Positions 17,404-38,982 are shown, counted from the stretch's first letter. The stretch: 64,000 nt of DNA from Acidobacteriota bacterium (GCA_040755995.1 JBFMAF010000038.1:1593-65592); one strand, 5' to 3'. The notes: generated from the letters alone by a model not told the origin. Numbers and translations: made by a program.

Positions 17404-17674
17404 CGAAGACCGGTCAACACCGGGCTCCCATTGATGGGGGAGGCGGCGCGGCATGGAAGGAGGTGACACGATGGCTCTGCGCTATCACCATACCTGATTC
17501 AGTGCGGGCGGAATGCACGGGATGCATTGGCTGTCCGGAGCTGCTGCGCCGTGCGTGCCACCTGCCGGCAGCGTCACCGCCTGTCTTCTCCGTTGTTGAT
17601 CGCCCTCCAGACGCCGCCGAACGAGGCCTCGACGTGCGCAGCCCAAACACCAACCGACAACGAAGGACTGTGGC

Positions 17675-18025: not shown

Positions 18026-18300
18026 CGGCGCGGCATGCAGTAGCGGAAACGCGACCCATCGAGTCGGCATCAGTAGCCTCAGGGCGACAGGGGTCGACCC
18101 TTGTTCGAAGGCCGAATGTCACTAGAACCAGGTTGATCAGACGACTAGCGGTCCTTGGAACCCAGCCCAAAGCCGCTGGCATCGGCTTTGCAAGAGAACG
18201 GGTGGGAGATGAAAGGCGGGCACAGTCGCATGTGTGAGATACGCGATCGTGGCATCAAACGCCGGCGGTGTGCCACGCCGATTCGACAGGAGGAACGATC

Positions 18301-18519
18301 ATGATTGGAAGAAGAGGAAGCAGAGAGGGTGGCCGCCGCGCGGGCGGGCAGGGCCGGGGCGGTCGGGGTCTCGGCCGGATGGGCGGAGCTTTCGCAGCCG
18401 GCCCAGGCGGCAACTGCGTCTGCCAGCAGTGCGGCCATCGCGAGTCACATCAACGCGGAGTGCCCTGCACCGGACGGATGTGTCCCAAGTGCGGCACAGC
18501 CATGACAAGAGAACCATGA
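18301..18519 (+). CDS. Small Gly/Arg-rich protein with a Cys4 zinc ribbon (CVCQQCGHRE...CTGRMCPKCG)
   Basis: RBS CAGGAGG. Zn ribbon homologous to the C-terminal fusion on the 13774-14325 protein. Confidence 0.5.
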   Translation: MIGRRGSREGGRRAGGQGRGGRGLGRMGGAFAAGPGGNCVCQQCGHRESHQRGVPCTGRMCPKCGTAMTREP

Positions 18520-18549
18520 CGACATAGCGATGACAAGGAGAACAACATC

Positions 18550-18924
18550 ATGCCAAGAGGTGACAGAACGGGGCCCGTGGGGATGGGTCCGATGACGGGG
18601 CGCGCTGCAGGGTACTGCGCGGGGCTCGGTGTGCCCGGCTATTCGAATCCCGCTCCCGGACGGATGTTCCGGGCGGGAGTCGGAATGGGCGGAGGAGGAC
18701 TGGGCCGCGGGTTCGGCGGCGGTGGTCGCGGATGGCGACACTGGTTCCACGCCACTGGTCTGCCCGGTTGGATGCGATTCGGTGGGTGGGCGGCACCCTA
18801 CGCGAAGCCTGACCGCGAATCGGAGAGGCGCACACTGCGGAATGAAGCACAGGCCTTGAAGGCCACCCTGGACTCGATCCAGAGTCGACTCTCCGAGCTG
18901 GAGGCCGGTCCAGACAAGCCGTGA
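18550..18924 (+). CDS. DUF5320-family protein (MPRGDRTGPVGMGPMTGRAAGYCAG..., WRHWFHATGLPGWMRFGG, coiled-coil C-terminus)
   Basis: RBS AAGGAGAA. The N-terminal 'MPRGD.TGP.GMGPMTGR..GYC' is the hallmark of DUF5320. Paralog of 14280-14621. Confidence 0.7.
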   Translation: MPRGDRTGPVGMGPMTGRAAGYCAGLGVPGYSNPAPGRMFRAGVGMGGGGLGRGFGGGGRGWRHWFHATGLPGWMRFGGWAAPYAKPDRESERRTLRNEAQALKATLDSIQSRLSELEAGPDKP

Positions 18925-18995
18925 ACCCGTGGAGAGGAATCCGTACCGGTGACTCTGACCACCAGTCCGAAGCAAGACGCTGCGGGGAGGATACG

Positions 18996-19358
18996 ATGAA
19001 GATTGCCTTCAGTACGTCGGGGCAGACCCTCGATGCCCCTCTGGACGGGCGTTTCGGCCGGGCGCCGAGGTTCCTCGTGTACGACGTCGAGCGTGCCGAT
19101 TTCAAGATCGTCGACAACACACAGGCATTCGATGCGATGCAAGGAGCAGGCGTCCAGGCGGCGGAGACAGTCACACGTGCAGGGGCGGGCTGCGTTGTGA
19201 CGGGGCACTGCGGGCCGAAGGCCTTCCGGGTCCTCTCTGCTGCCGGCATCGAGGTCTACACGACCGGCGCAGCCAGCGTGGCCGAGGCCCTGGAGCTCTT
19301 CCGCTCTGGGAAGCTCGTGCCCGCCACGGGTCCGGACGTGGATGGGCACTGGGCATGA
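18996..19358 (+). CDS. NifX/NifB-type dinitrogenase FeMo-cofactor-binding domain protein
   Basis: 'MKIAFSTSG..LDAPLDGRFGRAPRFLVYDVE...GAGCVVTGHCGPKAFRVLSAAGIEVYT' is a textbook NifX-like signature. Start chosen at the internal ATG with RBS GGGGAGG. Confidence 0.8.
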   Translation: MKIAFSTSGQTLDAPLDGRFGRAPRFLVYDVERADFKIVDNTQAFDAMQGAGVQAAETVTRAGAGCVVTGHCGPKAFRVLSAAGIEVYTTGAASVAEALELFRSGKLVPATGPDVDGHWA

Positions 19359-19882
19359 GGGCGACCGACCGAACTCTTCGGAGCGTCACTTACAAGCCGA
19401 TCGGCACAGTGCGGAGCGAGCATCGAGATCCCGAGCGGACGCCGATCCAGCCGACCCATGCGAGAGGTTGCAGGGGCCGCCTGCAGATTCGCCCGGAGGT
19501 GGCCGCAGGACTGAAGGACCTGGACGGTTTCTCTCACATCCTGCTGATCTACCACCTTCACAAGGCAGGCGGGCCGATGCTGACGGTGAGGCCGTTCATG
19601 GACGAGGCTGAAAGAGGTGTCTTTGCGACGAGGCATCCACGGCGCCCGAACGCCATCGGCATCAGCGTCGTGCGGCTTGTTCGGATCGAAGGTGAGACTT
19701 TGTACGTCGACGATCTGGACATTCTCGACGGCACGCCACTGCTCGACATCAAACCCTTCGTCCGCAGGTTCGACACGGTCGGGACCTCCCGTGACGGATG
19801 GGCGGGGCGGGTGGATGAGAGGACGGCCAGGCTGAGGGGTCGCAGAGGTTGTCGAAGGAGCCGGTCATCGGACCGGCGTTGA
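19355..19882 (+). CDS. TsaA/TrmO (YaeB, UPF0066) family tRNA-methyltransferase-like protein
   Basis: 'GFSHILLIYHLHK', 'GVFATRHPRRPNAIGISVVRLVRIEGETLYVDDLDILDGTPLLDIKPF'. ATG overlaps the upstream stop (ATGA). Confidence 0.75.
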   Translation: MRATDRTLRSVTYKPIGTVRSEHRDPERTPIQPTHARGCRGRLQIRPEVAAGLKDLDGFSHILLIYHLHKAGGPMLTVRPFMDEAERGVFATRHPRRPNAIGISVVRLVRIEGETLYVDDLDILDGTPLLDIKPFVRRFDTVGTSRDGWAGRVDERTARLRGRRGCRRSRSSDRR

Positions 19883-19887
19883 CGACG

Positions 19888-20766
19888 ATGAGCAAGAAAT
19901 TCGTCATCGCGGTTGCCTCGGGAAAGGGCGGGACGGGCAAGACGACCGTGGCTGTCAATCTTGCCCGTGTGCTGCCGGACCCGGTGCAGCTGATGGACTG
20001 CGACGTCGAGGAGCCGAACTGCCATCTGTTCCTGGACGGGGCGACCAGGGGCCAGGAGGAGGTCCATATCCCAGTGCCCGCAGTTGACGAGTCGCTCTGC
20101 GATGCCTGCGGCGAATGCAGCCGGATTTGCCAGTACCATGCCATCGTGTCGCTCAAGACCAAGCCTCTCCTGTTCCACGACCTCTGCCACGGATGTGGCG
20201 GATGTGCACGGGTCTGCCCTCCAGGTGCGATCCGCGAAGTGGGCCACCGCATCGGGGTCATCGAGACGTCGACGTCGGATCGCATCACCCTGATCCAGGG
20301 GCGGCTGGACGTCGGTGTCCCAACTGCCCCGCCGTTGATCCGCGCCGTGAGGGACCGTCGCCGGGACGACATGCCTGCCATTCTGGATGCGCCGCCCGGA
20401 ACCTCGTGCCCGGTCATCACGACCGTCAGAGACTCGGACTTCGTGCTGCTTGTCGCCGAGCCGACCCCGTTCGGATTGCACGACCTGGAGCTGGCGATCG
20501 AGCTTGTGCGGCAGCTGCGGATACCGTTCGGAGTCATGGTCAATCGTGCGGGGTCTGGAGACGAACGCGTTCGCACGCTCTGCCAAGACGAAGGAATCGA
20601 GATACTGCTGGAAGTGCCGGAAGATCGTAGAGTCGCCGAGAGCTGCTCGAGAGGCGAGATCCTGGTGGATGTGCTGCCGGAGTACCGGCGGCTCTTCGTG
20701 CGGCTGCTGGAGACGGTCCTGGAGCGGTGCAACCGGGCAGAAGGAGCCAGACATGCCCACGTATGA
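19888..20766 (+). CDS. MinD/ParA-superfamily P-loop ATPase with inserted 4Fe-4S dicluster ferredoxin domain
   Basis: Deviant Walker A 'SGKGGTGKTT'. Two CxxCxxCxxxCP motifs (CDACGECSRICQYHAI; CHGCGGCARVCPPGAI). Confidence 0.8.
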   Translation: MSKKFVIAVASGKGGTGKTTVAVNLARVLPDPVQLMDCDVEEPNCHLFLDGATRGQEEVHIPVPAVDESLCDACGECSRICQYHAIVSLKTKPLLFHDLCHGCGGCARVCPPGAIREVGHRIGVIETSTSDRITLIQGRLDVGVPTAPPLIRAVRDRRRDDMPAILDAPPGTSCPVITTVRDSDFVLLVAEPTPFGLHDLELAIELVRQLRIPFGVMVNRAGSGDERVRTLCQDEGIEILLEVPEDRRVAESCSRGEILVDVLPEYRRLFVRLLETVLERCNRAEGARHAHV

Positions 20767-21016
20767 GTATGAGTGCGGGAGATGCGGTCACAGGTTCGAG
20801 CGCATGCAGTCAATCACCGATGCGCCTCTCGAACGATGCCCCGAGTGCGACGGAGAGATCCGGCGCCTGGTGAGCGGCGGGGCCGGGTTCATCATCAAGG
20901 GGGGCGAGGCGGGTCGCCCCGGTTCTCACGCAGGCGACTGCGCTATCGAGCAGCGCGGGCAGACCTGCTGCGGCCGTGAGGAGCGGTGCGACAAGCCGCC
21001 GTGCGGGGGCAGATGA
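20753..21016 (+). CDS. FmdB-family zinc-ribbon small protein with Cys-rich C-terminal tail
   Basis: 'MPTYEYECGRCGHRFE...CPECDG' is the FmdB (CxxC..CxxC) signature. Tail '...GDCAIEQRGQTCCGREERCDKPPCGG'. RBS GAAGGAG. Confidence 0.7.
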   Translation: MPTYEYECGRCGHRFERMQSITDAPLERCPECDGEIRRLVSGGAGFIIKGGEAGRPGSHAGDCAIEQRGQTCCGREERCDKPPCGGR

Positions 21017-21969
21017 TCACACAGCATGCGGCCGGGCACGTCTACGGTCCCGTCTCTTCACGACGTCTGGGCAGATCCCTTGGCGTGGACCTGGTCCCCT
21101 TCAAGACCTGCACGTATGATTGTGTCTACTGCCAGTTGGGCCGCACCACAGACAAGACGACGGTTCGTACCGAATACGTGCCGGCCGATATGGTGTTCGA
21201 TGAGCTGCAGGCAAAATTGGCGACCACGAAGGCTGTCGACCATGTGACAATCGCCGGTTCCGGCGAGCCGACATTGAACTCCCGGGTGGGCGATCTCGTC
21301 ACAAGGATCAAGGCCCTCACGAGCATCCCGCTGGCCGTCCTGACAAACGGATCGCTCCTGTGGATCCGCGACGTGCAAGACGCACTCATGGACGCAGACC
21401 TGGTCCTCCCCTCGCTCGACGCCGGCGACGAGAACCTCTTCAGGTACGTGAACCGACCGCACAGCGACATTCGCTTCGCGACGATGGTCGATGGCCTCGT
21501 GCAATTCAGGGAGCGCTTCTCCGGACGTCTCTGGCTCGAGGTGTTCCTGCTCGGAGGGGTCACGGGAATCCGCCCGGAGGTCGAGAGGATCGCGGCGCTT
21601 GTGCAGCGGATTCGACCTGAGCGAGTCCAGCTCAACTCCGTCTCTCGGCCTCCATGCGAGGATTTCGCCTTCCCCGTGCCTGCAAGACAGATGGAGGGGT
21701 TCGCAGATCTGTTCGAAGTAGGTGCTGAAGTCGTCTGCGTCGAAAGAGGCGAAGGGGAAGGTGAGATTGTGGAGGCGAGTTCGGTGACCGACGAGGCGAT
21801 CCTGGCCCTGCTGAAGAGACGGCCGTGCACCGCCAGAGGGGTCGCTAGGGGGCTCGGCATCCATCTCAGCGATGCGACCAAACGATTGCACCGGCTGGCG
21901 CAGCAGACCGAGGTCAGACTGCTCCGCAGGCACAGGAGACTCTTCTACTGGGTCGACAACACACCATGA
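21013..21969 (+). CDS. Radical SAM protein (CTYDCVYC). ATG at 21013 overlapping the FmdB stop is preferred; the track ORF starts at 20986.
   Basis: 'YGPVSSRRLGRSLGVDLVPFKTCTYDCVYCQLG' is a CxxxCxxC core with the upstream GPV.SRRLG motif seen in small COG0731-type radical SAM enzymes. Confidence 0.8.
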   Translation: MITQHAAGHVYGPVSSRRLGRSLGVDLVPFKTCTYDCVYCQLGRTTDKTTVRTEYVPADMVFDELQAKLATTKAVDHVTIAGSGEPTLNSRVGDLVTRIKALTSIPLAVLTNGSLLWIRDVQDALMDADLVLPSLDAGDENLFRYVNRPHSDIRFATMVDGLVQFRERFSGRLWLEVFLLGGVTGIRPEVERIAALVQRIRPERVQLNSVSRPPCEDFAFPVPARQMEGFADLFEVGAEVVCVERGEGEGEIVEASSVTDEAILALLKRRPCTARGVARGLGIHLSDATKRLHRLAQQTEVRLLRRHRRLFYWVDNTP

Positions 21970-22898
21970 CCAGAGAGCTTGTCGTCGTGAGCGGCAAAGG
22001 CGGAACAGGGAAGACGAGCCTCGCCGCGTCCTTCGCGGCCCTGGCGCGCCGTCCGGTGATCGCGGACTGCGATGTCGATGCGGCGGACCTGCATCTGGTT
22101 CTGACACCGCGAGTCGTCGAACGGCACGAGTTCTGGAGCGGCCACGAGGCCGTGGTCCGAACGGCGGACTGCACACTCTGCGGTGCCTGTCTCGGGGACT
22201 GCGGCTATGGAGCGATCAGGATGGAAAACCAGCAGGACGGCAGGGCGACCTTCTCGGTGGATCCTCTGTCGTGCGAGGGGTGCGGTGTCTGCGTGCGATT
22301 CTGCCCGGCACAGGCGATGGATTTCCGCGAGAGATTGTGCGGCGAGTGGATGGTGTCGGAAACCCGCTGCGGACCGATGGTCCACGCACAGTTGGGGATC
22401 GCCGCCGAGAACTCCGGCAAGCTCGTCTCGACCGTCCGGCGCGCGGCGCGCCGCATCGCCGAGGACAACGGTCATCCCCTGGTCATCGTCGATGGGCCGC
22501 CGGGGATCGGATGCCCGGTCATTGCGTCGATCACCGGCGCGGATGCCGTGCTGGTGGTCACCGAGCCCACACGGTCCGGAGAACACGATCTTCGACGAGT
22601 AATCGAGCTGTCTCGTCACTTTCAGATCCCCTCGTGGGTGTGCGTGAACAAGAGCGACATCAATCCTGAGCTGACGGTGCGAATCGAGGCGGAGGCACGG
22701 AGCATGGGATGTGAGGTCGCCGGGCGGATTCCCTGGGATCCGTCCGTCACCGGCGCCCAGCTCGCAGGCGCCTCCGTGGTCGAGTACGGCAACGGACCCG
22801 CCGCCAGCGGCATCCGGAGCATCTGGGAGAGGCTGGAGCATGTCGTTCTGCTCGGAGCCCCTGGTGAAAGGAAACTCGCTGCGGCGGCGGAATCTTGA
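21966..22898 (+). CDS. Second MinD/ParA-type P-loop ATPase with 4Fe-4S dicluster domain
   Basis: 'SGKGGTGKTS'. 'CTLCGACLGDCGYGAI' and 'CEGCGVCVRFCPAQAM'. ATG overlaps the radical-SAM stop. Confidence 0.8.
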   Translation: MTRELVVVSGKGGTGKTSLAASFAALARRPVIADCDVDAADLHLVLTPRVVERHEFWSGHEAVVRTADCTLCGACLGDCGYGAIRMENQQDGRATFSVDPLSCEGCGVCVRFCPAQAMDFRERLCGEWMVSETRCGPMVHAQLGIAAENSGKLVSTVRRAARRIAEDNGHPLVIVDGPPGIGCPVIASITGADAVLVVTEPTRSGEHDLRRVIELSRHFQIPSWVCVNKSDINPELTVRIEAEARSMGCEVAGRIPWDPSVTGAQLAGASVVEYGNGPAASGIRSIWERLEHVVLLGAPGERKLAAAAES

Positions 22899-24069
22899 TG
22901 CCGTCGAGGAGGATGTGCGACGCTGCCTTCACCGGGACCTGCGCCATTTCTGGTTCATCTGCTCGGAGCTGAACAACCTCGGCCGCGAATTCGCCCTCGT
23001 CCTGGCGGAGCGGATGCTGCGGATGAACGAGCAACGCGGCTCCGACCGGTTCACGTGGAAGTCGTACATGTTGCCGCGCTCGTTCTCGCAGAGCGATTTC
23101 GATCTCCTCTACAGATCGGGGTTCGTCACGACGTGGAATCCGGTCGAGTCGTTCGATGACGCCCAGCTCGCCCTGTCGCGCTCGCCCTACAGCGCGCGCG
23201 ACGCGTCGCTCTTCCTGGGGCGCGACTTTCGCGCGAGAAGGAAGCACGGTCGCTTGCCGCCATTGCCTGTGTCTATCTTCCTGGGCGACCAGCACCTGAC
23301 CCCGGAGTCGCTCTCGCGTTGCGTCCAGCGCTTCAACCGCGAGCGCCTCTGGAGAGTCTGCGGCGGCGCAGTGGCAGTCCACGCCCTTCGCGTCTGGGAC
23401 TTCGAATCCCAGGGCGTACCGGAAGGGGAGGCGGTCACGTTCGCTCCCGAGGGGACTGGACGCCTCGATCTCGCCCACCCAACGTATCACTTTCCGGCGG
23501 AACTGCTGCGCGACTTCGGCAGCCGCGAGGCCGTGATGGTCCTCCACGATCGTCTCCTCTCGACGTTCTTCTCGCATGGGCACCGGAATCGGCCGGAGTG
23601 GTGCCGGTTCCTGGCTCGACACGCATCGCCCACCACACTGCATCGGGAATTGCTGCGCATCGGAAGCGAGGCCGTGCTCAAGGATCCTTCCGTCGAAACG
23701 CTTCGCGATCTCATGACGCCGTCACGCGACAACGAGGCGAGCTGCGAGGCCGTGGCAGAGCGCCTGCTCGGACTGCTCCGGCGGGCGTATCGACGGGACC
23801 TCGAGCGGATCTACCGGTTCCTGGAGATTCCCTCCGACCGGCGGGGGAGGATTGCGATCGACGAGTACGACCTGCACGAAATTCTTTATCGGAAGTTCGA
23901 GACCACGGAAGGGCTCCTAGCCGCCGTGAAACGGCGGTTCCGCCAGCGAACCGGCTCGACGCTCCTCCTGCTGTTTCGTTCAGAGCTCCATCGCCGAAAC
24001 GTCCTGCTGGACCCGCTGCACAGGAAATGGATCTTCCGGCATCTCGACCGACCAGGTTCATCGATATGA
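22840..24069 (+). CDS. Hypothetical protein resembling the post-Cys-motif half of a B12-binding radical SAM enzyme, but lacking the B12 domain and the CxxxCxxC triad
   Basis: 'SLRRRNLDAVEEDVRRCLHRDLRHFWFICSELNN' aligns by eye with 'RKTRYHSVERVLDEIEYVSRKGLRRFWFADPSF' of the bona fide B12-rSAM at 46048-47352. The start overlaps the MinD gene end. Weak call. Confidence 0.35.
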   Translation: MSFCSEPLVKGNSLRRRNLDAVEEDVRRCLHRDLRHFWFICSELNNLGREFALVLAERMLRMNEQRGSDRFTWKSYMLPRSFSQSDFDLLYRSGFVTTWNPVESFDDAQLALSRSPYSARDASLFLGRDFRARRKHGRLPPLPVSIFLGDQHLTPESLSRCVQRFNRERLWRVCGGAVAVHALRVWDFESQGVPEGEAVTFAPEGTGRLDLAHPTYHFPAELLRDFGSREAVMVLHDRLLSTFFSHGHRNRPEWCRFLARHASPTTLHRELLRIGSEAVLKDPSVETLRDLMTPSRDNEASCEAVAERLLGLLRRAYRRDLERIYRFLEIPSDRRGRIAIDEYDLHEILYRKFETTEGLLAAVKRRFRQRTGSTLLLLFRSELHRRNVLLDPLHRKWIFRHLDRPGSSI

Positions 24070-24752
24070 CGACACACGCCATCATCGGAGGAATGGGGCC
24101 GCTCGCCTCGGCCGCGTTCCTACAAACCATCTACGAAAATCACGGCTGGGATCGCGAGCAGGAGCTGCCGGATATCCTGCTCCATTCGCTTTCCTCGGTC
24201 CCCGACCGCACTTCCACCTTGCTGTCCGGGCGGGACGATCTCCTCCTCGAACGCCTGCGGTGCGCGCTGCGGCAGGTCAACCTGCTTGATCCCGCATCGA
24301 TCGTGATCTGCTGCGTGACGTCTCATCATCTCCTCGACCGCCTGCCGGAGGAGATTCTGCCGAAGATCATCTCGCTCACCGACACGGCGCTGAAGACCGT
24401 TGCGGCGAAAGGCGAGCGCGCACTTCTCCTGGCCACCCGCGCCACCTATGAGCTGCGCGTCTTCGAACGGAGCCGGCACTACGCGGCGGCCGCGCCGCTG
24501 ATCGTGACACCCGAGCCGGCGGATCAGGAGCGCGTGCACGCGATGATCTATGACGATCTCAAGAAAGGCCGGCGGATCGCAGAAACAGCCGACGCACTTG
24601 CGGCCATGACCGCGCGGTACGGAGTCGGCGCGTTCATCGCCGGCTGCACCGAATTCCATCTGGTGACGCGTCATCTCCGGAAGAACCGCGTGGCGACGCC
24701 TTCCTTTATCGATCCGCTGATGACGATCGCTGACAAGGAGATGAGGGCATGA
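24066..24752 (+). CDS. Asp/Glu/hydantoin racemase family protein (aspartate racemase-like)
   Basis: 'IGGMGPLASAAF', 'CCVTSHH', 'AGCTEFHL' are the two catalytic-Cys motifs of the family. ATG in frame inside the long track ORF. Confidence 0.7.
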   Translation: MTTHAIIGGMGPLASAAFLQTIYENHGWDREQELPDILLHSLSSVPDRTSTLLSGRDDLLLERLRCALRQVNLLDPASIVICCVTSHHLLDRLPEEILPKIISLTDTALKTVAAKGERALLLATRATYELRVFERSRHYAAAAPLIVTPEPADQERVHAMIYDDLKKGRRIAETADALAAMTARYGVGAFIAGCTEFHLVTRHLRKNRVATPSFIDPLMTIADKEMRA

Positions 24753-26605
24753 GTCCGGCTTACTCGAACGCCACTCTGCGGGAGAGGATCGTCGAGCTCG
24801 TCGGGGACGTCTCGGGGCTCAGTCCCTCCTCGATCGATCCAAACGCCAACTTCTTCAGCCTCGGACTGAACTCCCTGATGTTCATGCAAATCCGGGACCG
24901 GATCGAGAGGGAGCTCGGCGTCGAGCTTGCGGTGAGCCAGTTCACTAACGATGTCTCAACGCTGGTGAAGCTGACCGGATACCTGGAGGAGCGGCTCGCA
25001 CTCGTTCCTTCCTCCGAATCTCAGCCGCCGCCAGTTCCGGATCGCTCCGATCAGACCGGACGGACTGGGGAGACTTCCCTCGACCTTTCATCACTCTCGG
25101 GGCTCGATACGCTCTTTCGCCGCCAGCTCGATGTACTGGAGCGGCAGAACGAGATCCTGCTCTCCGCCTTCCTCAACGGCGGCGGTGCGGCCCCCGCTCC
25201 GTCCCGCCCCGCGCCGGCTCCCCCCGGGAAGGCCTACGTTCCCTTCAAGGCGATCGTGACGTCGCGTTCCTCCGGCGTTGCCCAGGAGCATGTCGAAGCA
25301 CTCGCGCGGCTCCTGGGCGAGAAGTGCAAGTCGACGAAGGACCTTACCCAGAAGCATCGTCGCGTCTTCGGCAATAATCGCGCCATCGCCGGGTTCCGGC
25401 CAGATTGGAAGGAGATGGTCTATCCGCTCATCGCCGCCCGTGCGGACGGCTCGCGGATCTGGGATCCTGACGGGAACGAATACATCGACCTCACTATGGG
25501 CTTCGGCGTGGCGCTCTTCGGCCACAACCCCGCGTTCGTGATGGAGGCGATCCGGGCGGAGCTCGCAAACGGCATGCCACTCGGCCCGCTCTCGCCGCTG
25601 GCGGGGGAGGTTGCGGAGCTCATCGCCGAGCTTACCGGAGTCGAGCGCGTGGCCTTCTTCAACTCGGGTACCGAGGCCGTGATGGTGGCACTCAGGCTCG
25701 CCCGGACTGTGACTGGCCGCGCCAGGGTCGCGATCTTCTCGGGTTCCTTTCATGGAAGCTTCGACGGCATACTTGCGATCCGCGGCGCGGGCGGCAGGAC
25801 GCTGCCCATGCTGCCGGGCAGTCCCGCGGGCATCGTCGCCGATGTCATCGTTCTCGACTACGACGATCCGGCCTCGCTGGATTACGTGGCGGCGCACGGC
25901 GGGGAGCTGGCAGCGGTCCTCGTCGAACCGGTGCAGAGCCGTCATGTCGAGATCCAGCCGCGCGACTTCCTGCACCGGCTCAGGGAGCTGACCGCCGCGT
26001 CCGGAACCGCGCTGATCTTCGACGAGGTCATCACTGGCTTCCGGATCCATCCGGGCGGCGCGCAGGCCAGGTTCGACGTGCGCGCTGACATCGTAACCTA
26101 CGGCAAGATCATCGGCGGCGGGCTTCCGATTGGGATCGTGGCCGGTCGCGCCGAATTCATCGACGCGGTGGACGGAGGGATGTGGCAATACGGCGACGAA
26201 TCCTATCCCGCGAAGAAGAACACCTTCGTGTCTGGGACCTTCTGCCACCATCCCCTCGCGATGGCCGCCGCGCGCGCCGTGCTTCTTCACCTCAGGAGAG
26301 AGGGCCCGAAGCTCCAGGAGGACCTGAATCAGCGCACCGCGGCGTTCGTGACCCGCATGGCCGATCTGTTCAGGGACAGGAGCTGGCCGATCCGCATCGC
26401 CTGCTTCGGCTCGCTCTTCAGGATGGATCTCATGCCGGATCACGAGCTCCTCTACTACCACCTGCTTGACAAGGGCGTCTATGTCTGGGAGGGCCGCAAC
26501 TGCTTCCTCTCGACCGCGCATTCAGACGGCGACATCGAAGCGATCGAAACGGCGATCCGCGCATCCGCGGAGGCCATCGAGCGGGCCGGGCTCTTCCACC
26601 ACTGA
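24749..26605 (+). CDS. Fusion of an N-terminal acyl/peptidyl carrier protein domain to a class-III (glutamate-1-semialdehyde aminomutase-like) PLP aminotransferase
   Basis: N-terminus 'FFSLGLNSLMFMQIRDRIE' (PP-binding, Asn instead of the usual Asp before the Ser). Body 'FNSGTEAVMVALRLAR', 'FDEVITGFR', 'YGKIIGGGLPIG' (PLP-Lys region). ATG overlaps the racemase stop. Confidence 0.8.
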   Translation: MSPAYSNATLRERIVELVGDVSGLSPSSIDPNANFFSLGLNSLMFMQIRDRIERELGVELAVSQFTNDVSTLVKLTGYLEERLALVPSSESQPPPVPDRSDQTGRTGETSLDLSSLSGLDTLFRRQLDVLERQNEILLSAFLNGGGAAPAPSRPAPAPPGKAYVPFKAIVTSRSSGVAQEHVEALARLLGEKCKSTKDLTQKHRRVFGNNRAIAGFRPDWKEMVYPLIAARADGSRIWDPDGNEYIDLTMGFGVALFGHNPAFVMEAIRAELANGMPLGPLSPLAGEVAELIAELTGVERVAFFNSGTEAVMVALRLARTVTGRARVAIFSGSFHGSFDGILAIRGAGGRTLPMLPGSPAGIVADVIVLDYDDPASLDYVAAHGGELAAVLVEPVQSRHVEIQPRDFLHRLRELTAASGTALIFDEVITGFRIHPGGAQARFDVRADIVTYGKIIGGGLPIGIVAGRAEFIDAVDGGMWQYGDESYPAKKNTFVSGTFCHHPLAMAAARAVLLHLRREGPKLQEDLNQRTAAFVTRMADLFRDRSWPIRIACFGSLFRMDLMPDHELLYYHLLDKGVYVWEGRNCFLSTAHSDGDIEAIETAIRASAEAIERAGLFHH

Positions 26606-26649
26606 GAGCTACCGAGGCCACGCCCTCCACGTCAACGCCCGTTTCCGTC

Positions 26650-26668
26650 GTCAACAACGGTTGACATC
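26650..26668. promoter_or_regulatory. Motif GTCAAC-N4-GTTGACATC (contains -35-like TTGACA). Recurs at 62541-62559, with a wider-spaced variant at 62388-62434.
   Basis: Exact recurrence read from the sequence in two intergenic regions. Confidence 0.3.
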
Positions 26669-26707
26669 CTGAAGGGCCGGCCCGTTCCAAGGTTCCAAGA
26701 CCAAGGC

Positions 26708-26736
26708 TTGACGTCCGAGGCGATTTGTCCTAGATT
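26708..26736 (+). promoter_or_regulatory. Candidate sigma70-type promoter for the ABC exporter: TTGACG, 17-nt spacer, TAGATT
   Basis: -35/-10-like hexamers with canonical spacing about 65 nt upstream of the 26800 start, in a 190-nt intergenic gap after a long coupled operon. Confidence 0.35.
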
Positions 26737-26799
26737 CGTCAAATGTTCACGACCGAAATCGAAGTCATTGGATTATTCTAGCGCTGGCGTGGCCGTCCA

Positions 26800-28446
26800 T
26801 TGAGAGCCCTCGGACCGATCTCGCGACTTTATCAATTCGTGGTGAAGGAGTCGCCGGAGTCTTGGAAACTCGTTCTCTACATGGCGCTCCTATCCGGAAT
26901 CGCCAATGGGGTGCTTCTGGGCGTCATCAATGCCGGAGCATTGGCGGCCTCCTCGGACTCGACGAGCTTGCGCCTGCTGCTGCTTTTCGCCATTGCAATG
27001 ACGGTCTTCGTGATGGCGAAGAAGATGGCTCTCGTCCGCTCCACAATCACCGTCGAGCGGCTGGTGAAGCGGCTTCGGATAAGGGTCTCTGACAAGATCC
27101 GGAAGTGCAAGTACGTCCTGTTGGAATCGCTCGGTCGCGGAGATCTCTATACGAAGATCTCGCAGGACACCAACTTCATCTCCCAGGCCTCCCACGTCAT
27201 CATCAACGCTGCTCAAGAGGCGGTCGTCGTGGTGTTCTGCCTGGTGTACATTGCCACACTATCGTTTGCGGCCTGCTTCGTCACAGTCATCTCCATCTTG
27301 CTCGCTGTCTACATCTATTACTACCATCAGAGGGCGCTCCTGGCTGACCTCAAGGAGTGGACGAGACGTGAAGCCGTCATGTTGGATTCGCTGGGGCACC
27401 TCGTCGACGGATTCAAAGAGGTCAAGGTTAACCGGAAGCGGAGCGACTCCTTGTTCGACTCGATCAAGTTCATCGCTGCGGATGCTGAGACCCTGAGGAG
27501 CAAGACCGGCATTCGGTTCGTGACCGATGTCATGTTCGCCCAGGTGTTCTTCTACCTCCTGATCGCCACGATCATCTTTCTTCTGCCTCGACTCGTGCCG
27601 ACTTACGCCGATGTGGTGATCAGGACGACTGCGGCGATCCTCTTCATCATCGGTCCGCTGGAGGCGGTGGTGAGCGCCGCCCCGATCCTTTCGCGAGCGA
27701 ACGTTGCCCTCGATAACCTGTACAAGCTCGAGGATCTTCTCGACACGGCCCAGGAAGATGGGGAACCGGTGATGGCGGAGGGCTTTTCGGGATTCCGGGA
27801 GATTCACGTCCGAAGCCTCGTTTTCAGCTATCTCGATCCGGCCGGCGTGCCCACGTTCACGATCGGGCCGATCACGTTTTCTCTCCCTCGCGGCCAGATG
27901 CTGTTCATTGTCGGAGGGAATGGGACGGGCAAGTCGACCTTTCTCAAGCTGCTCACCGGTCTCTATTATCCGAGGCAGGGGCTGATCAGAGTCGACGATC
28001 AGGAGATCCACCCGGGCAACCTGGCGGCCTATCGGGATCTCTTCTCGCCCATTTACTCGGACTTTCATCTCTTCGACCGTCTCTATGGATTGGAAGATAT
28101 CGAAGAGAGCAAGGTCACGGCGTTGCTCAGCGAGATGGAACTAGAGGGGAAGACGGAGTACCTCCATGGCAAGTTCTCGACGCAAAACCTTTCCTCCGGC
28201 CAGCGCCGTCGCCTCGCGCTCATCGTCTCGCTCCTCGAAGACAAAGACGTCTACGTCTTCGATGAGTGGGCCGCGGACCAGGATCAACGTTTCCGGAGGC
28301 ATTTTTACGAAGTCATCCTGCGGGATCTCAAATCGAGGGGCAAAACGGTCGTCGTCATCACCCACGATGATCGGTACTGGAGCACGGCCGATCGACTCAT
28401 CAAGATGGATTACGGAGAGATGGTCGAACAGGACGGCCTCGGCTAG
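26800..28446 (+). CDS. Fused permease-ATPase ABC exporter of the cyclic-peptide/siderophore-peptide transporter type (SyrD/PvdE-like, TIGR01194-like)
   Basis: N-terminal 6-TM domain. Walker A 'GGNGTGKST', signature 'LSSGQRRRL', Walker B 'VYVFDEWAADQD'. 548 aa. Confidence 0.8.
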   Translation: MRALGPISRLYQFVVKESPESWKLVLYMALLSGIANGVLLGVINAGALAASSDSTSLRLLLLFAIAMTVFVMAKKMALVRSTITVERLVKRLRIRVSDKIRKCKYVLLESLGRGDLYTKISQDTNFISQASHVIINAAQEAVVVVFCLVYIATLSFAACFVTVISILLAVYIYYYHQRALLADLKEWTRREAVMLDSLGHLVDGFKEVKVNRKRSDSLFDSIKFIAADAETLRSKTGIRFVTDVMFAQVFFYLLIATIIFLLPRLVPTYADVVIRTTAAILFIIGPLEAVVSAAPILSRANVALDNLYKLEDLLDTAQEDGEPVMAEGFSGFREIHVRSLVFSYLDPAGVPTFTIGPITFSLPRGQMLFIVGGNGTGKSTFLKLLTGLYYPRQGLIRVDDQEIHPGNLAAYRDLFSPIYSDFHLFDRLYGLEDIEESKVTALLSEMELEGKTEYLHGKFSTQNLSSGQRRRLALIVSLLEDKDVYVFDEWAADQDQRFRRHFYEVILRDLKSRGKTVVVITHDDRYWSTADRLIKMDYGEMVEQDGLG

Positions 28447-28527
28447 CGCGACCACGCCTCAAACCATCGAGTCGTGGCCTGGCGCTGAGAGTCAAAAGTT
28501 GATCGTCGTTAGAGGAGTAACTTCGAA

Positions 28528-29370
28528 ATGAAGTGGAGAGATATTCGCGCCTGGATTGGCCATAGCCTTCCGTACCTGATCATGACAGCTCTCATCTTGC
28601 TCTTCGCCATCGTGTTCTTTGCGCCCCGGATATTCATCGTCGTTCACTCGGGCGAGGCCGGCGTCTTCTATCGTATGTTCCTCGGCGGCACCGTCACGGA
28701 CAGGGTGTATGGCGAGGGGCTCCACATCATATTCCCCTGGAATAAGATGTACGTGTACAACGTCCGGCTGCAGGAACGGGGCGATGAGCTCGATGTTCTG
28801 ACCAAGAACGGTCTCCGATTGCACCTCAAACTTTCAATCCGATTCTACCCGGAAAGAGACGTGATCGCAGTCCTCCATCAGAGGATCGGCCCTGACTACG
28901 TCGACAAGATCATCATCCCCAGCGTGGAATCGATCGTCCGGCAACGAGCGGGCGAGATGAGTGAGCAGGACGTCTACACGACACAGCACGCCTTCGTCCA
29001 GAGCCTCCTCGCGGAATCGTATGCGGATGTCGGCCAGAGCTATCTCAAGATACATGCCGTGATAGTCCGCGAGGTACGACTGCCGGAGCCGATCCAGAAG
29101 GCGATCGAGCAGAAGCTCGAACAGGAGCAGCTGGCGGCCGCGTATGTCTACAGGCTCGATCGTGAGTTGCAGGAAGCCAAGCGGAAAGCCATTGAAGCAG
29201 ACGGCTACAAGATGTACAACGATACCGTCAACTTGTCGTTGACGCCGGCGCTTCTCAAGTGGAAGGGCATCGAAGCCACCAAGGAGCTCGCTCAATCACC
29301 CAACACAAAGGTCATTGTCGTGGGGAATGGGGATCAAGGTTTGCCGGTTCTCCTCTCCGGCGAGAAGTAG
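28528..29370 (+). CDS. SPFH/band-7 (prohibitin/HflC-like) membrane protein
   Basis: N-terminal TM then 'VHSGEAGVFYRMFLGG...' SPFH core. Coiled-coil C-terminus. Confidence 0.8.
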   Translation: MKWRDIRAWIGHSLPYLIMTALILLFAIVFFAPRIFIVVHSGEAGVFYRMFLGGTVTDRVYGEGLHIIFPWNKMYVYNVRLQERGDELDVLTKNGLRLHLKLSIRFYPERDVIAVLHQRIGPDYVDKIIIPSVESIVRQRAGEMSEQDVYTTQHAFVQSLLAESYADVGQSYLKIHAVIVREVRLPEPIQKAIEQKLEQEQLAAAYVYRLDRELQEAKRKAIEADGYKMYNDTVNLSLTPALLKWKGIEATKELAQSPNTKVIVVGNGDQGLPVLLSGEK

Positions 29371-29634
29371 GCGCCGGGAGCGCGAACAAGCGCTTCGGTT
29401 TCTGGGGTCCTTCTTCGCCTCACTGCTCTTGTCGCCGGTCATCGGAGTCCCGCTTCTGCTTGCGGCCAGGGGCCCCCAATCCGAGCGTGAGCGGATCTCC
29501 CGGTCCACGGCCTCCCTTTGCCCCCGAAGTTGTTGCGCACCCGGCGTGAGCAACCGACTTGACTCTGTCCAGTCTCAGAGAATAGAGTCGAACTTGTCGG
29601 TGACTCATAATCCTCAGCCAATGGAGGTAACTCT

Positions 29635-30183
29635 ATGAGGAAGGAAGCAGCAAGACCTGTGGAGGGGGCCCCGGGGGAACCGAAACCCGAAACGCCAGCC
29701 GGGAGCAAGGCAACGGCATCGAGGGAAGCGCAGGCGCAACCGATCATCAACAAGTACATGATCGGATCGCTCGTAGCAGGGATCATCCCGGTCCCAATCG
29801 TGGACATCGCTGCCGTCACGGGCATCCAATTGAAGATGCTCCACTCGCTGTCGCGGCTCTACGAGCTCGAATTCAGGGAGAACGCCGGGAAGTTCGTCAT
29901 CGGATCTCTCGTTGGCGGCATCGGTTCGAGTGCGCTGGCGTGGGGGATGTTCGGCAGCCTGGTGAAGGCCATTCCCATCATCGGCCCTCTGGCGAGCCGC
30001 ATGACGATGCCCGTGCTGGCCGGCGCAAGCACCTACGCGCTCGGCAAGGTGTTCGTACAGCACTTCGAGATGGGAGGGACCTTCCTCAATTTCGACCCGT
30101 CGGCTGTTCGCGAACACTACGAGAAGCTCTTCAAGGAAGGGCAGCAGGTCGCCTCCGAGATGGCCAAGGAAGCCTCCGCCTAG
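29635..30183 (+). CDS. DUF697-like (YcjF-type core) membrane-associated protein
   Basis: 'IGSLVAGIIPVPIVDIAAVTGIQLKMLHSLSRLYELEF' and Gly-rich amphipathic segments. About 78% aa identity to the inverted paralog 36900-37487. Confidence 0.55.
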   Translation: MRKEAARPVEGAPGEPKPETPAGSKATASREAQAQPIINKYMIGSLVAGIIPVPIVDIAAVTGIQLKMLHSLSRLYELEFRENAGKFVIGSLVGGIGSSALAWGMFGSLVKAIPIIGPLASRMTMPVLAGASTYALGKVFVQHFEMGGTFLNFDPSAVREHYEKLFKEGQQVASEMAKEASA

Positions 30184-30306: not shown

Positions 30307-31764
30307 TCATGATGACGACTCTTGAGTCTGTGCACTCGCGGGCTGCGGCGTCCATCCGCCACCAAGGGCCTTGTAAAGTTGGACCACTGACTGAAGCTGC
30401 GCCAGCTTCCCCTGCGCGAGGCCGATTTCCGCTGCGTAGAGCTGACGCTGGGCGTCGAGCACCTCCAGGTAGCTCGAAACGCCCCCTCGATAGCGCTTGT
30501 CAGTCAGGCGCAGATACGTCTGGCCGGCTTCAACCTGCCTCGTCTGCGCCTCGATCTGCGATTGCAGAGTCTGGTAGGTAACGAGCGAATCGGCCACTTC
30601 GGCAAGCGCGGTGAGCACCGTGCTGCGATAGCTCAGGGCCGCCTGCTCCATCTGCCACTTCGCAGCGCGCACGTTGTACCGCCCCGGCACGTCGAGCAAC
30701 GGCCAGCCGACGCCCGGTCCCCACGAGAAGATGCCGTCAGTCTTCCCACGGAACAGGTCCGCCAGAACCGTGCTCATCGTGCCCGCGAATCCTGTCAGCG
30801 AAAGCAGCGGGAACGGGAAGGTCGAAGCCTTGGCTACTCCGACCCGAGCCGTCGCGGCGATGAGATCCTGCTCGGCTTGCCTCACATCAGGACGCCTTTC
30901 GAGCAGCTGCGAAGGGAGCCCGGCAGGGATCACCGGCGGGAGCGGCATGCCCCGCGCCTCATCGGGAAGAGCAATTGCCTCGGGCGCACGCCCCCTCAAC
31001 CCGCTCAACTCGTTTTCCACCTCCGCGATCTGGCGGATGATTGCCGGTAACTGCGCCTGCACCGAAGCGAGCTGCCCAAGCGCCTGCGCCTCTTCGGTAC
31101 CGGAGGCGACTCCGCCACGACCGAGCTCGCGCACCAGATCCAACGACTTCTGGTCAGCCTGGATCGTTCGCTCGGTAATCACCTTCTGCTCGAGCAGAGA
31201 CCGCAGCTGGAAATAGTCGGATGCCACCTGCGCGACGAGCGCCGAAACCGCTGCGCGCCGCGCCTCCTCGGTCGATAGCAGGTCGGCAAGCGCCGCCTGT
31301 GACGATCGTCGAATGCGCCCGAACAGATCGATTTCCCAAGATACCGTCAACCCGCCGGTGTAGGTGCTTCCCGACCCGGCCTTGTAAGACACGAGTCGGC
31401 CGGTGCCCGGATCGAGGGCCAGCCCCTCGGACGCCGGCCGGGCCGACGTGTCGAGCACCCCTTCGACCACGGGCGCAATGCCGGCCAGGGCAGCGCCGTG
31501 GCGTGCACGCGCCTCTTCGACCCGTGCAACGGCAATCCGCAAGTCGAGGTTGTTTGAAAGCGTCTCCTTGATGAGGCCGGTCAGAACCGGATCCTGGTAG
31601 AGCTCCCACCAGCCCATGTCGGCGAGCGACTTCGGTTCCGTCTGCGGCACCTCGCTGCGATAAGCTTCGGGGGCGTTCGTTTCGGGCCGCCGGTACTTAG
31701 GCCCCACGGCACAGGCGGTTGAAAGAAGGAGGCACCCAATGACGGTTCTCGACGCCAGACTCAT
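30307..31764 (-). CDS. RND efflux outer-membrane factor lipoprotein (NodT/OprM family)
   Basis: Lipobox 'LLLSTAC', two-repeat OEP architecture, overlaps the upstream RND permease stop. Confidence 0.85.
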   Translation of the reverse strand: MSLASRTVIGCLLLSTACAVGPKYRRPETNAPEAYRSEVPQTEPKSLADMGWWELYQDPVLTGLIKETLSNNLDLRIAVARVEEARARHGAALAGIAPVVEGVLDTSARPASEGLALDPGTGRLVSYKAGSGSTYTGGLTVSWEIDLFGRIRRSSQAALADLLSTEEARRAAVSALVAQVASDYFQLRSLLEQKVITERTIQADQKSLDLVRELGRGGVASGTEEAQALGQLASVQAQLPAIIRQIAEVENELSGLRGRAPEAIALPDEARGMPLPPVIPAGLPSQLLERRPDVRQAEQDLIAATARVGVAKASTFPFPLLSLTGFAGTMSTVLADLFRGKTDGIFSWGPGVGWPLLDVPGRYNVRAAKWQMEQAALSYRSTVLTALAEVADSLVTYQTLQSQIEAQTRQVEAGQTYLRLTDKRYRGGVSSYLEVLDAQRQLYAAEIGLAQGKLAQLQSVVQLYKALGGGWTPQPASAQTQESSS

Positions 31765-36899: not shown

Positions 36900-37487
36900 C
36901 TAAGCCGTCGTGTCCTTGCTCATTTCGGAAGCGACCTGTTGTCCTTCCTTGAACATCTTCGCGTAGTGTTCGCGGACAGCAGCCGGGTCGAAATTGAGGA
37001 ACGTGCCTCCCGCCTCGAAGTGTTGAACGAACACCTTCCCGAGAGCATAGGTGCTGGCCGCGGCCATGACGGGCATCGTCAGCGAGCCAGCCAGGGGGCC
37101 CAGGATTGGAATGGCCTTCACGAGGCTGCCGAATGTCCCCCACGCGAGCGTGCTTGATCCGAAACCGCAGACGAGAGATCCGATGATGGACTTCCCGAGG
37201 TTGTCCTTGAATTCGAAACCGTAGAGGCGCGAAAGCGAATGGAGCAACTTTAGCTGAACGCCGGTGATTGCGGCCACATCGACGAGTGGGGCCGGGATGA
37301 TCCCAGCTACCAGTGACCCCACCATGAACTTGTTAACGATTCTCTGGGCCTGCAACTCCTTTGTTTCCATGGCGCTTGGGCCGGTTGGCGTCTCCTGCTT
37401 CTGTTCCTCCGGGGCTCCCTCCAGTGGTTTCGTGGCTTCTTTCCTCATAGAGCTACCTCCAGTGGTTGAGGACAGCGAGATCTTCAT
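36900..37487 (-). CDS. DUF697-like protein, inverted paralog of 29635-30183 (start possibly at internal MRKEATKPLEG)
   Basis: About 78% identity over 150 aa to the + strand copy. Confidence 0.55.
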   Translation of the reverse strand: MKISLSSTTGGSSMRKEATKPLEGAPEEQKQETPTGPSAMETKELQAQRIVNKFMVGSLVAGIIPAPLVDVAAITGVQLKLLHSLSRLYGFEFKDNLGKSIIGSLVCGFGSSTLAWGTFGSLVKAIPILGPLAGSLTMPVMAAASTYALGKVFVQHFEAGGTFLNFDPAAVREHYAKMFKEGQQVASEMSKDTTA

Positions 37488-37731
37488 AGTTTCGAGTCTA
37501 ATCCCGGTGCATAAGGACTGTCAATCGTTTTCGTGGCGTTCCGACGCCTGCTCACCGTCGATCCTGCCCGCGCTCGAAGGAAGGCGGGCCGGCGGCGAGG
37601 AGGAGCAGGAGCCCGATGATCGGCGTGAGGAAAATTGAGGCAAAGAAATAACCCCAAAATCCGAATCGCTTGTTCATGCCCAACACCGCAATGGCGATGC
37701 TCGCTATGAGATACATGAGATAGAACATGCT

Positions 37732-38982
37732 TCAATCCCCTTCGTCGGGCTGCGTTGAATCGCGAAGGACGGCCGATTGAGTCTGGCTCTCGGGCTCCCA
37801 GGGCACTGTCCGGGTCTCGGAGCCGGGCACGATCTCGAAGTGCCCGCGTTTCACCACCTTGACGAAGATCTCCCGCCCGACGGGATCGCCATACGCGGTA
37901 AAGGACATGTCTTCGCCGACCCCATGGAAAGGGCCCTCGTGGTAGAGAGTCGTGGCCACGACGAGCGGCATCGTGGAGTGAGTCCTCTCGACAGCCTGTG
38001 CATATACCGAAACGGCCTCGTACCCGAGAGACGCGGCCAGGTCCGGGTAGTGTCCGAACCTCGTTCGGAATCGCCTGCTGAATCCCATTTCGAGGTCGCT
38101 GCCGCCCGCCGTCGGATCGAAGATCGTCGGAACGTATGTCCCATCCGCCGCTGCTCCGGCGAGCCGCCAGAGGTTGGGCGAATCAATTTCGTGGCCACCC
38201 ATCAACGGCTGCGTGATTCCCATCTGGCGCGCCTGCTTGATGACCTTGGCGGCGAGGGGAAGGCTGTCCAGGACGAGCATGGCGTCCATGTCGGTGCTGC
38301 GCGCATCCGCCAGGAGCGGGCGGAAGTCCCGGCACTCGGAACCATAGGAGCTGACGAACGAGGCCTTGATGCCTTCAGGATCCCCGAAGTAGAGGAACAT
38401 GGCTGCGTAAAGGCCCTTGTAGCCGTCTCGATTGAACAGAATCCCCACCTTCTTGAACCCTGCACGGGCGGCGAACAGCGCGAGGCACCTGCAGGATTCC
38501 TGGGCAGGCGGGATCACTCTGAGCACGTGTTGGAACCTGTGTGATGTGAGGCTGGGATCGGAAGCAAAGGGAGCGATGAACAGAATTCCAAAGTACTCGT
38601 ATGTCACGGACGCAGAGATCGCGGTCTCAGAGGCTACGTGCCCGATGACGGCCATGAACCGGGGCGTCCTGCCGATCTTTTCGGCGACGTCTGCGGAGGT
38701 ATCGGGGTTCTCCTCATTGAAGTAGGTCGGGACCAGCCGGCGCCCGCCGAAAATGCCCTTCACATTGACATCGTCTACGGCGAATTGAACCCCATCGAGA
38801 AAGTGAGTTTTGTCGGCGAACGGCCAGACGATCGCAATGTCGATCGGTCCGTCAGAGGTCTCTGCCCAATCGACGCGCATTTCCGCATAGCGCTGGTACA
38901 GATTGTTCTGGCCGTAGGAGTAGTAGCCGATGGCGGCGGCCACTGCGGCAAGGATCGCGAGCATCGGGGCCGTCCTTTTCAT
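37732..38982 (-). CDS. Periplasmic substrate-binding protein, Leu/Ile/Val-binding (Peripla_BP_6) family, without adjacent permease genes
   Basis: Signal peptide. 'IAVIGHVASETAISASVTYEYFGILFIAPFASDPSLT'. Confidence 0.65.
   Translation of the reverse strand: MKRTAPMLAILAAVAAAIGYYSYGQNNLYQRYAEMRVDWAETSDGPIDIAIVWPFADKTHFLDGVQFAVDDVNVKGIFGGRRLVPTYFNEENPDTSADVAEKIGRTPRFMAVIGHVASETAISASVTYEYFGILFIAPFASDPSLTSHRFQHVLRVIPPAQESCRCLALFAARAGFKKVGILFNRDGYKGLYAAMFLYFGDPEGIKASFVSSYGSECRDFRPLLADARSTDMDAMLVLDSLPLAAKVIKQARQMGITQPLMGGHEIDSPNLWRLAGAAADGTYVPTIFDPTAGGSDLEMGFSRRFRTRFGHYPDLAASLGYEAVSVYAQAVERTHSTMPLVVATTLYHEGPFHGVGEDMSFTAYGDPVGREIFVKVVKRGHFEIVPGSETRTVPWEPESQTQSAVLRDSTQPDEGD

Follow-up and report, generated by a model that had tools for sequence, protein, structure and literature searches.

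What does it mean when a set of iron–sulfur (Fe-S) cluster genes runs, through overlapping stop and start codons, straight into genes for amino acid tailoring and export? Such an arrangement is seen in a 64-kb window (the whole stretch of DNA analysed) of a 76-kb contig of an Acidobacteriota metagenome-assembled genome (MAG). The initial annotation of the region 22840-28446 described a Cys-less protein resembling radical S-adenosylmethionine (radical-SAM) enzymes, an Asp/Glu racemase, a carrier-fused aminotransferase and an ABC exporter, and read them as a continuation of the Fe-S operon that produces and exports a modified metabolite or peptide. The explanation favoured here, with a probability of about 70%, is that 22846-30183 and 36900-38982 are the remains of a cluster of the nonribosomal peptide synthetase/polyketide synthase (NRPS/PKS) type, possibly for a β-amino-acid lipopeptide-like product, which a deletion has joined to an unrelated MinD/NifX/radical-SAM operon.

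All four open reading frames (ORFs) of the initial annotation are present where it placed them, and the two stop/start overlaps that it reported, 4-nt ATGA sequences at 24066-24069 and 24749-24752, are both real. The ATG at 22840 lies 59 nt inside the gene for MinD-2, the second MinD-type ATPase of the upstream operon, whose end is at 22898. NCBI places the start of this first ORF at a GTG at 22864 (401 aa), and its product names for the region include "hypothetical protein AB1714_23945", "aminotransferase class III-fold…" and "ATP-binding protein".

No Pfam family matches the 22840 ORF, and a B12/radical-SAM model matches it weakly, with 34 bits in the central part of the model. Its homology lies with the part of B12/radical-SAM proteins that follows the Fe-S motif, as had been proposed, and it corresponds to the 3′ 60% of the genes of a rare TsrM-like cobalamin/radical-SAM family with proteins of ~685 aa (hereafter rSAM-like). 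A word-indexed search of 5.8 billion proteins returned 16 relatives and an exhaustive HMMER search of 1.84 billion representatives returned 105; fragmentary entries aside, they are 620-770 aa long. Residue 2-3 of the window protein aligns with position ~220-260 of these relatives, and the alignments with 14 full-length homologues begin at FCSEP. In the CxxxCxxC region the full-length proteins read …RGCPFSCYFCSEPLVKG…, where the ORF opens with MSFCSEPLVKG. The …CYFCSEP of the family is MSFCSEP here (compare RGCPFSCYFCSEP), the ORF beginning inside the motif; Cys1 and Cys2 are gone and the third cysteine, Cys4, alone is kept, so that the protein is not strictly Cys-less. The cobalamin-binding Rossmann-type N-terminal domain is absent as well, the homologues having ~220-260 extra N-terminal residues; in full-length members this missing part gives weak B12-binding (PF02310) and Radical_SAM Pfam matches, and across B12 domain and radical-SAM core the family profile matches TsrM (6wte) with E=8e-27. 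What is retained is a partial TIM barrel after the cluster loop and a C-terminal helical domain. The partial barrel is recovered by the TsrM profile and by fold matching: an AlphaFold2 (AF2) model of the retained part, with a mean predicted local distance difference test (pLDDT) score of 85, has a β/α partial-barrel pattern followed by the helical domain, and its best Foldseek match is TsrM. With no cobalamin domain and one of its three cluster ligands left, the predicted product cannot act as a radical-SAM enzyme or B12 methylase.

No second genuine short form starting at FCSEP was found among the 105 relatives from the HMMER search. One candidate for a naturally short form, P0278 (405 aa, same start position), was rejected, being cut off where its 1.6-kb contig ends. 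The missing N-terminal half was not found elsewhere in the window; the sole match is the unrelated, complete B12-radical-SAM gene at 46048-47352. The initial annotation had suggested aligning the ORF with full-length B12-radical-SAM proteins, this one included. The relationship to full-length proteins was found, and the 46048-47352 protein turned out to belong to a different family, with 22-23% identity to rSAM-like proteins over long alignments, rising to ~40% only near the Cys motif. It has 434 aa and is encoded on the minus strand, between a TPR protein and an M28 peptidase (44366-48981).

On the upstream side of the joint, the MinD-2 protein of the window has 310 aa, of which its homologues, 290-296 aa long, cover only 93-95%. 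The stop codon is lost, and a tail of 15 read-through codons, LGAPGERKLAAAAES, takes the place of the native MinD-2 end. A homologue with 84% identity, encoded at locus L115, ends with …EHAVL precisely where the window runs on. The L115 gene finishes …GAG CAT GCG GTT CTG TGA and the window reads …GAG CAT GTC GTT CTG CTC GGA GCC…; where L115 stops, at GTTCTGTGA, the window has GTTCTGCTCGGAGCC. In the other frame the codons TTC TGC TCG GAG CCC specify the Phe-Cys-Ser-Glu-Pro of the radical-SAM motif. A five-way DNA alignment places the end of similarity to L115, and the start of similarity to three full-length rSAM-like genes, within TTCTG at 22846-22850. This pentanucleotide is invariant in all five sequences and constitutes a 5-nt microhomology common to the MinD-2 3′ end (GTTCTG-TGA) and the motif codons TTC TGC. 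Upstream of 22846 the DNA alignment shows no similarity to the rSAM-like genes. Homology that seemed in tBLASTN to reach 22777 was rejected as alignment drift, since only 4 of 22 positions match by eye.

Judged from the aligned DNA, the junction is the signature of a microhomology-mediated deletion, and comparison with the homologues establishes that the radical-SAM gene lost its front ~275 codons, and MinD-2 its stop codon, in this putative event. MinD-2 is followed in L115 not by the cluster but by a methyltransferase-like gene (GCGxG motif, by eye). The proposal that 22840-26605 continues the Fe-S operon functionally is not sustained, the adjacency being a deletion junction. Transcription is likely to read through from the upstream operon; the continuity with the Fe-S genes is an accident of the deletion, and no shared function is implied by such read-through.

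A joint of this kind could also arise during assembly or binning, in which case the contig would be chimeric and the organism would have a complete rSAM-like gene and a normal MinD-2. The source is a MAG and the truncated form is unique among the 1.84 billion representative proteins, as such an artefact would be. However, the two sides share 5 nt, far under any assembler k-mer, both reading frames are open across the joint, and codon-position G+C content (GC) is alike on both sides, with window GC uniform across the joint. An assembler would need far more than five shared bases to make such a join, so that a chimera is extremely unlikely.

The genes behind the truncated ORF are those of a tailoring set. 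The second ORF had been called an Asp/Glu racemase, and this assignment holds: the encoded protein is a putative McyF-like Asp/Glu-family racemase, its substrate being assigned by similarity. It scores 76 bits with PF01177 (Asp_Glu_race) and 107 bits with TIGR00035 (cutoff 93), and its best solved relative is McyF (5wxx), at 144 bits versus ~70 for other Asp racemases. The two catalytic Cys motifs are kept, as ICCVTSH and GCTEFH; the Cys in the former aligns with a McyF Cys for which 5xnk has Ser, and the latter is conserved. The cysteate-racemase model NF052483 also matches, with 98 bits and under its cutoff of 190.

The third ORF encodes a stand-alone 618-aa protein made of a carrier (thiolation, T) domain and an aminotransferase (AMT) domain; with no ketosynthase (KS) or condensation (C) domain in the window, it is placed neither in a PKS module nor beside a condensation domain. 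The N-terminal PP-binding domain named in the initial annotation is confirmed by PF00550 at residues 12-79 (62.7 bits, cutoff 20.8), and Aminotran_3 (PF00202) covers residues 225-580 with 172 bits. The carrier motif does read LGLNSL instead of LGxDSL, and the attachment serine, Ser42, is present. In 63 homologous T domains preceding such aminotransferases the residue before this serine is D (52), N (4), E (4), A (2) or G (1); the Asn, found in 4/63, is therefore a minor variant and not a defect. The motif YGKIIGGG is present at residue 451, and we take it to be the pyridoxal phosphate (PLP) lysine site from the known GSAM-family motif and from the alignment score. The AMT domain matches that of MycA (6kfu) over residues 179-615 with E=3e-164 and 551 bits, against 195 bits for glutamate-1-semialdehyde (GSA) aminomutase, in agreement with the likeness to iturin-type AMT domains seen earlier.

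The racemase–T-AMT pair is also found in two metagenomic contigs of only 3.2 kb, L006 and L007, with T-AMT proteins 74% identical. In L006 it is flanked by the C-terminus of an rSAM-like gene upstream (64% identity) and a Peripla_BP_6-like gene downstream; in L007 a β-lactamase-like gene precedes it and a Cys/Met-PLP gene follows. Pairwise ratios of nonsynonymous to synonymous substitution rates (dN/dS) against L006/L007 are 0.15-0.28 for the racemase and 0.18-0.22 for T-AMT; within the latter they are 0.14 for the AMT, 0.36 for the carrier and 0.40 for the linker. The pair is under purifying selection. It is probably functional, most plausibly with synthetases encoded elsewhere and acting in trans.

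The fourth ORF had been described as a SyrD/PvdE-like, cyclic-peptide-type ABC exporter. It contains both ABC_membrane and ABC_tran, that is, fused transmembrane and nucleotide-binding domains (TMD-NBD), and scores above the cutoff of the matching model (TIGR01194, cyc_pep_trnsptr; 326 bits versus 286.2). The protein is 45-46% identical to the ABC protein encoded downstream of a full-length rSAM-like gene in the Brocadiaceae loci L010/L011. A promoter had been proposed in front of the gene, and the 194-bp gap there does hold a promoter-like site, TTGACG-17-TAGATT at 26708-26736; it is a candidate by consensus match only, five promoter-type consensus sites being found in the region versus 1.8 expected. 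The Band7 protein that follows is 48-50% identical to the product of the same-position gene in L010/L011 and 41% identical to that in L095. DUF697a is 47-51% identical to the DUF697 protein whose gene adjoins the rSAM-like gene in L002, L010, L011, L013 and L014. In tBLASTN, DUF697b matches the second DUF697 of L002/L013/L014, and the window Peripla_BP_6 protein matches those of L010/L011/L095; these last two genes (36900-38982) are separated from the other accessory genes by a resistance-nodulation-division (RND) efflux operon.

The combination of TIGR01194 ABC, Band7/SPFH, Peripla_BP_6 and DUF697 genes recurs with the rSAM-like family in Brocadiaceae MAGs and one metagenome contig (L010 7315-12473; L011; L095 4058-12812), and in Desulfobacteraceae loci the rSAM-like gene is flanked by two DUF697 genes. 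The RND efflux operon in the window (30307-36784, minus strand) consists of an outer-membrane factor, an AcrB-type pump, a HlyD-type adaptor and a helix-turn-helix (HTH) regulator, and sits between both halves of the accessory set as if inserted. GC is ~64% (0.64) over the window and falls to 58-60% (0.58-0.60) at 26000-30000, a part that spans the ABC/Band7/DUF697 genes; these may be of foreign origin.

The nature of the original cluster is suggested by a comparison of 106 loci encoding rSAM-like family members with the window proteins and with cluster proteins. Members of the close subfamily (37-43% identity) that have enough flanking DNA, in Brocadiaceae and Desulfobacteraceae, lie in or beside NRPS/PKS-type clusters. 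Locus L009 (Ca. Anammoxibacter) encodes an NRPS, the rSAM-like protein, a racemase (44% identity), an AsnB-like amidotransferase and an …AMT-C-A-T-C-C megasynthase (A, adenylation). The two Brocadiaceae loci L010/L011 combine the rSAM-like gene with a type II thioesterase (TE), an Sfp-type phosphopantetheinyl transferase (PPTase), and ABC (45%), Band7 (49%), Peripla_BP_6 and DUF697 (47-51%) genes. NRPS, AsnB, thioesterase and two DUF697 genes occur in L002, L013 and L014, the latter two from Desulfobacteraceae MAGs. L003 has a KS-AT-T-AMT-C megasynthase (AT, acyltransferase) followed by AsnB and the rSAM-like gene, and L001 has a PKS. The window holds the union of the accessory genes of these loci: racemase, AMT, ABC, Band7, DUF697a, DUF697b and Peripla_BP_6. 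A search of the literature on anammox clusters turned up nothing specific. Distant family members (25-33% identity), which were left out of the inference, are found in many Streptomyces genomes, in Kofleriaceae and in Asgard archaea, mostly without accessory genes; those at Streptomyces loci (L016, L019, L026-L031 and others) and in Asgard MAGs (L042, L045, L046) belong to the ~680-aa family at 25-31% identity.

The core of such a cluster is missing from the window. With cluster proteins as tBLASTN queries, no genes for A, C, KS, acyl-ligase, AsnB, TE or PPTase were found in the 64 kb, and Pfam scans of the main predicted genes likewise showed none; for A, C and KS the tBLASTN threshold was E<=1e-10. 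The homologous loci have these core synthetase genes, and the notion of a self-sufficient production set is not supported. The pathway is incomplete at this locus because no partner enzymes are nearby.

Alternatively, the racemase, the carrier-AMT and the shortened rSAM-like protein could form, with the exporter, a working minimal pathway that makes and exports an aminated, D-amino-acid-containing small molecule, much as the initial annotation had it; the acyl chain would be loaded by enzymes of the housekeeping fatty-acid synthase or by others encoded elsewhere. None of the three ORFs is disrupted, their ATGA overlaps couple them translationally, the attachment serine and PLP lysine are in place, an exporter of matching type adjoins, and selection has kept the racemase and the AMT, the pair persisting in L006/L007 without visible synthetases. 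Yet those contigs are so short that the absence of synthetases from them means little, and megasynthases accompany the same genes in all informative loci. The 64 kb offer neither an enzyme to load or extend the carrier nor a PPTase, the rSAM-like protein lacks its cofactor-binding parts, and the set came to lie beside the upstream operon through a deletion. A minimal pathway of this kind is therefore rather unlikely. Decidedly more speculative is a self-contained mobile two-gene module, suggested by the three different flanking contexts of the pair and the purifying selection on it, in which the racemase and the stand-alone carrier-AMT would tap fatty-acid-synthase intermediates and make a carrier-bound or free β-amino (possibly D) acid without a megasynthase, with the beheaded rSAM-like protein perhaps kept in this lineage as a cofactor-free partner.

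Several observations weigh against a cluster remnant joined by deletion. No ancestral arrangement was recovered for this lineage, L006 being cut before the 5′ end of its rSAM-like gene. Only 64 kb of the MAG contig is visible and the partner synthetases could be elsewhere in the genome. The occurrence of the racemase–T-AMT pair in three different flanking contexts, under purifying selection, speaks against a dead relic. The truncated ORF itself keeps 23 of the 24 family-invariant residues of the retained part and is open throughout, without stops or frameshifts, so that no decay is visible. Its C-terminal dN/dS against L006 is 0.43 (108 codons), which falls in the range of 0.11-0.50 for intact gene pairs over the same region, a calibration too wide to tell decay from maintenance. 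This leaves two explanations, a recent deletion or some remaining use for the remnant.

The latter possibility can be taken further, in that the shortened protein may have been repurposed and kept by selection, for example as a scaffold or substrate-binding partner of the pair through its C-terminal helical domain. The near-complete set of invariant residues and the open frame would fit such a role, as would a Shine–Dalgarno (SD)-like GGAGAGG 7 nt before the ATG at 22840, the confident AF2 model, and the fact that in L006 a homologue, or at least its C-terminal part, precedes the pair. However, L007 carries the pair without an rSAM-like gene, the short form has no second example, and the dN/dS value is uninformative. 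Half a TIM barrel that lacks the first strand and the cluster loop is not likely to fold on its own, and the AF2 confidence derives from an alignment of full-length proteins. A new function for the shortened protein is very unlikely.

If the region is the remnant of a cluster, its history and remaining activity can be pictured as follows. A microhomology-mediated deletion would have joined the cluster remnant to the MinD-2 3′ end, cutting the TsrM-like gene inside CxxxCxxC and removing the MinD-2 stop. The 22840 ORF, the racemase gene and the carrier-AMT gene would then be read through from the upstream operon. Once phosphopantetheinylated, the carrier would hold a β-ketoacyl thioester from a ketosynthase encoded elsewhere, and the AMT would convert it with glutamine into a β-aminoacyl thioester, as MycA does. 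Like McyF, the racemase would provide a D-acidic amino acid, and the ABC protein, transcribed from its own promoter, would export the product. The positions of the junction and of the genes on either side of it are collected in Table 1.

Table 1. The junction and its surroundings, with positions counted from the first nucleotide of the window.
Feature	Position	Strand	Evidence
MinD/ParA-type ATPase with 2x[4Fe-4S] ferredoxin insert (MinD-2)	21966..22898	+	Pfam matches; homologue lengths
Deletion junction (putative), TTCTG microhomology	22846..22850	+	Five-sequence DNA alignment
5′-truncated TsrM-like cobalamin/radical-SAM gene, 409 codons from ATG 22840	22840..24069	+	Homologue alignments, profile, AF2/Foldseek
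McyF-like Asp/Glu-family amino-acid racemase (putative)	24066..24752	+	PF01177, TIGR00035, McyF 5wxx
Stand-alone carrier (T/ACP) + ~130-aa linker + MycA/McyE-type AMT domain	24749..26605	+	Pfam, MycA 6kfu
Sigma-70-like promoter candidate TTGACG-17-TAGATT	26708..26736	+	Consensus match only
Fused TMD-NBD ABC exporter, 'cyclic peptide export' (SyrD/PvdE/YojI) type	26800..28446	+	TIGR01194
Band 7/SPFH protein, accessory set	28528..29370	+	Pfam
DUF697 membrane protein (copy a), accessory set	29635..30183	+	Pfam
DUF697 copy b (36900-37487) and Peripla_BP_6 binding protein (37732-38982), accessory set	36900..38982	-	Pfam

The upstream operon occupies 16138-22898 on the plus strand. It encodes a Cys/Met-metabolism PLP enzyme, DsrE-like and DUF5320 proteins, a NifX-type FeMo-cofactor-binding domain, a TrmO_N domain, a MinD/ParA ATPase with a 2x[4Fe-4S] insert, a 327-aa radical-SAM protein and the second MinD/Fer4 protein. 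The MinD/Fer4 family is very large, with at least 8000 members, all 8000 scored candidates being significant, and the rSAM-MinD gene order is also kept in L115. Further upstream, at 4219-10636 on the plus strand, three tandem paralogues combine SBBP β-propeller repeats with a C-terminal TIG domain and are preceded by a Reg_prop/Y_Y_Y histidine kinase and a response regulator of the LuxR type.

The locus carries a caution for genome mining, namely that a neat "operon" with overlapping stop and start codons can be a deletion welding together two unrelated units, and that a "Cys-less radical-SAM" protein can be, as here, the product of a beheaded gene. It also draws attention to a rare TsrM-like family (~105 representatives in 1.84 billion) whose closest members are tied to NRPS/PKS clusters of anammox and sulfate-reducing bacteria, and to an accessory set of ABC exporter, Band7, DUF697 and binding protein that travels with it. 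This family and its companions are only mildly new elements, the other components being of known kinds, and neither the family's link to these clusters nor the accessory set opens a long-standing question.

Among characterised enzymes, TsrM is a tryptophan 2-C-methyltransferase of the class B cobalamin-dependent radical-SAM type. The full-length rSAM-like family matches its B12 domain and radical-SAM core, and TsrM is the best fold match of the retained part. However, full-length members remain far under every NCBIfam cutoff (TIGR04428, 61 versus 500; TIGR04072, 94 versus 360) and have an extra ~270-aa C-terminal helical domain, and the window copy is without the B12 domain and two of the cluster cysteines.

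For the aminotransferase, the best solved match is the MycA AMT of the mycosubtilin/iturin synthetase (PDB 6kfm/6kfu), with about three times the score of GSA aminomutase. MycA turns a β-ketoacyl thioester into a β-aminoacyl thioester with glutamine as donor (PMC3870968). The PLP-lysine motif is shared, and substrate and amino donor are assigned to the window protein by analogy; in contrast to MycA, the window offers no fatty acyl-AMP ligase (FAAL), KS or downstream condensation domain. One example of a comparable stand-alone protein is P0034 of locus L116, an acyl carrier protein (ACP)-AMT of 662 aa with the same two domains and 46% identity. Its gene directly follows a KS-AT gene and is accompanied by NRPS genes, forming a split module, whereas in the window the racemase gene and the remnant precede.

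The microcystin/nodularin pathway brings together the same three functions that are adjacent in the window: McyE-AMT forms a β-amino acid from a carrier-bound β-keto intermediate, McyF supplies D-Asp and McyH is an ABC transporter, and the mcy tailoring and transport genes have their own promoters (PMC2885083). As in McyE, the window AMT follows a carrier domain. The mcy ACP-AMT is embedded in a KS-AT-CM-ACP-AMT-C-A-PCP megasynthase (CM, C-methyltransferase; PCP, peptidyl carrier protein) amid further PKS/NRPS genes, whereas its window counterpart stands alone; mcy is cyanobacterial and the window is from an acidobacterial MAG, its ABC protein being likened to McyH by function. Further parallels are the Brocadiaceae/Desulfobacteraceae clusters (L009-L011, L013, L014, L002), which share with the window the rSAM-like protein (37-43%), racemase (44%), AMT (~50%), ABC (45%), Band7 (49%), DUF697 (47-51%) and Peripla_BP_6 (31%), and which beyond these encode an NRPS, an AsnB-like protein, a type II thioesterase, an Sfp-type PPTase and the rSAM-like protein at full length.

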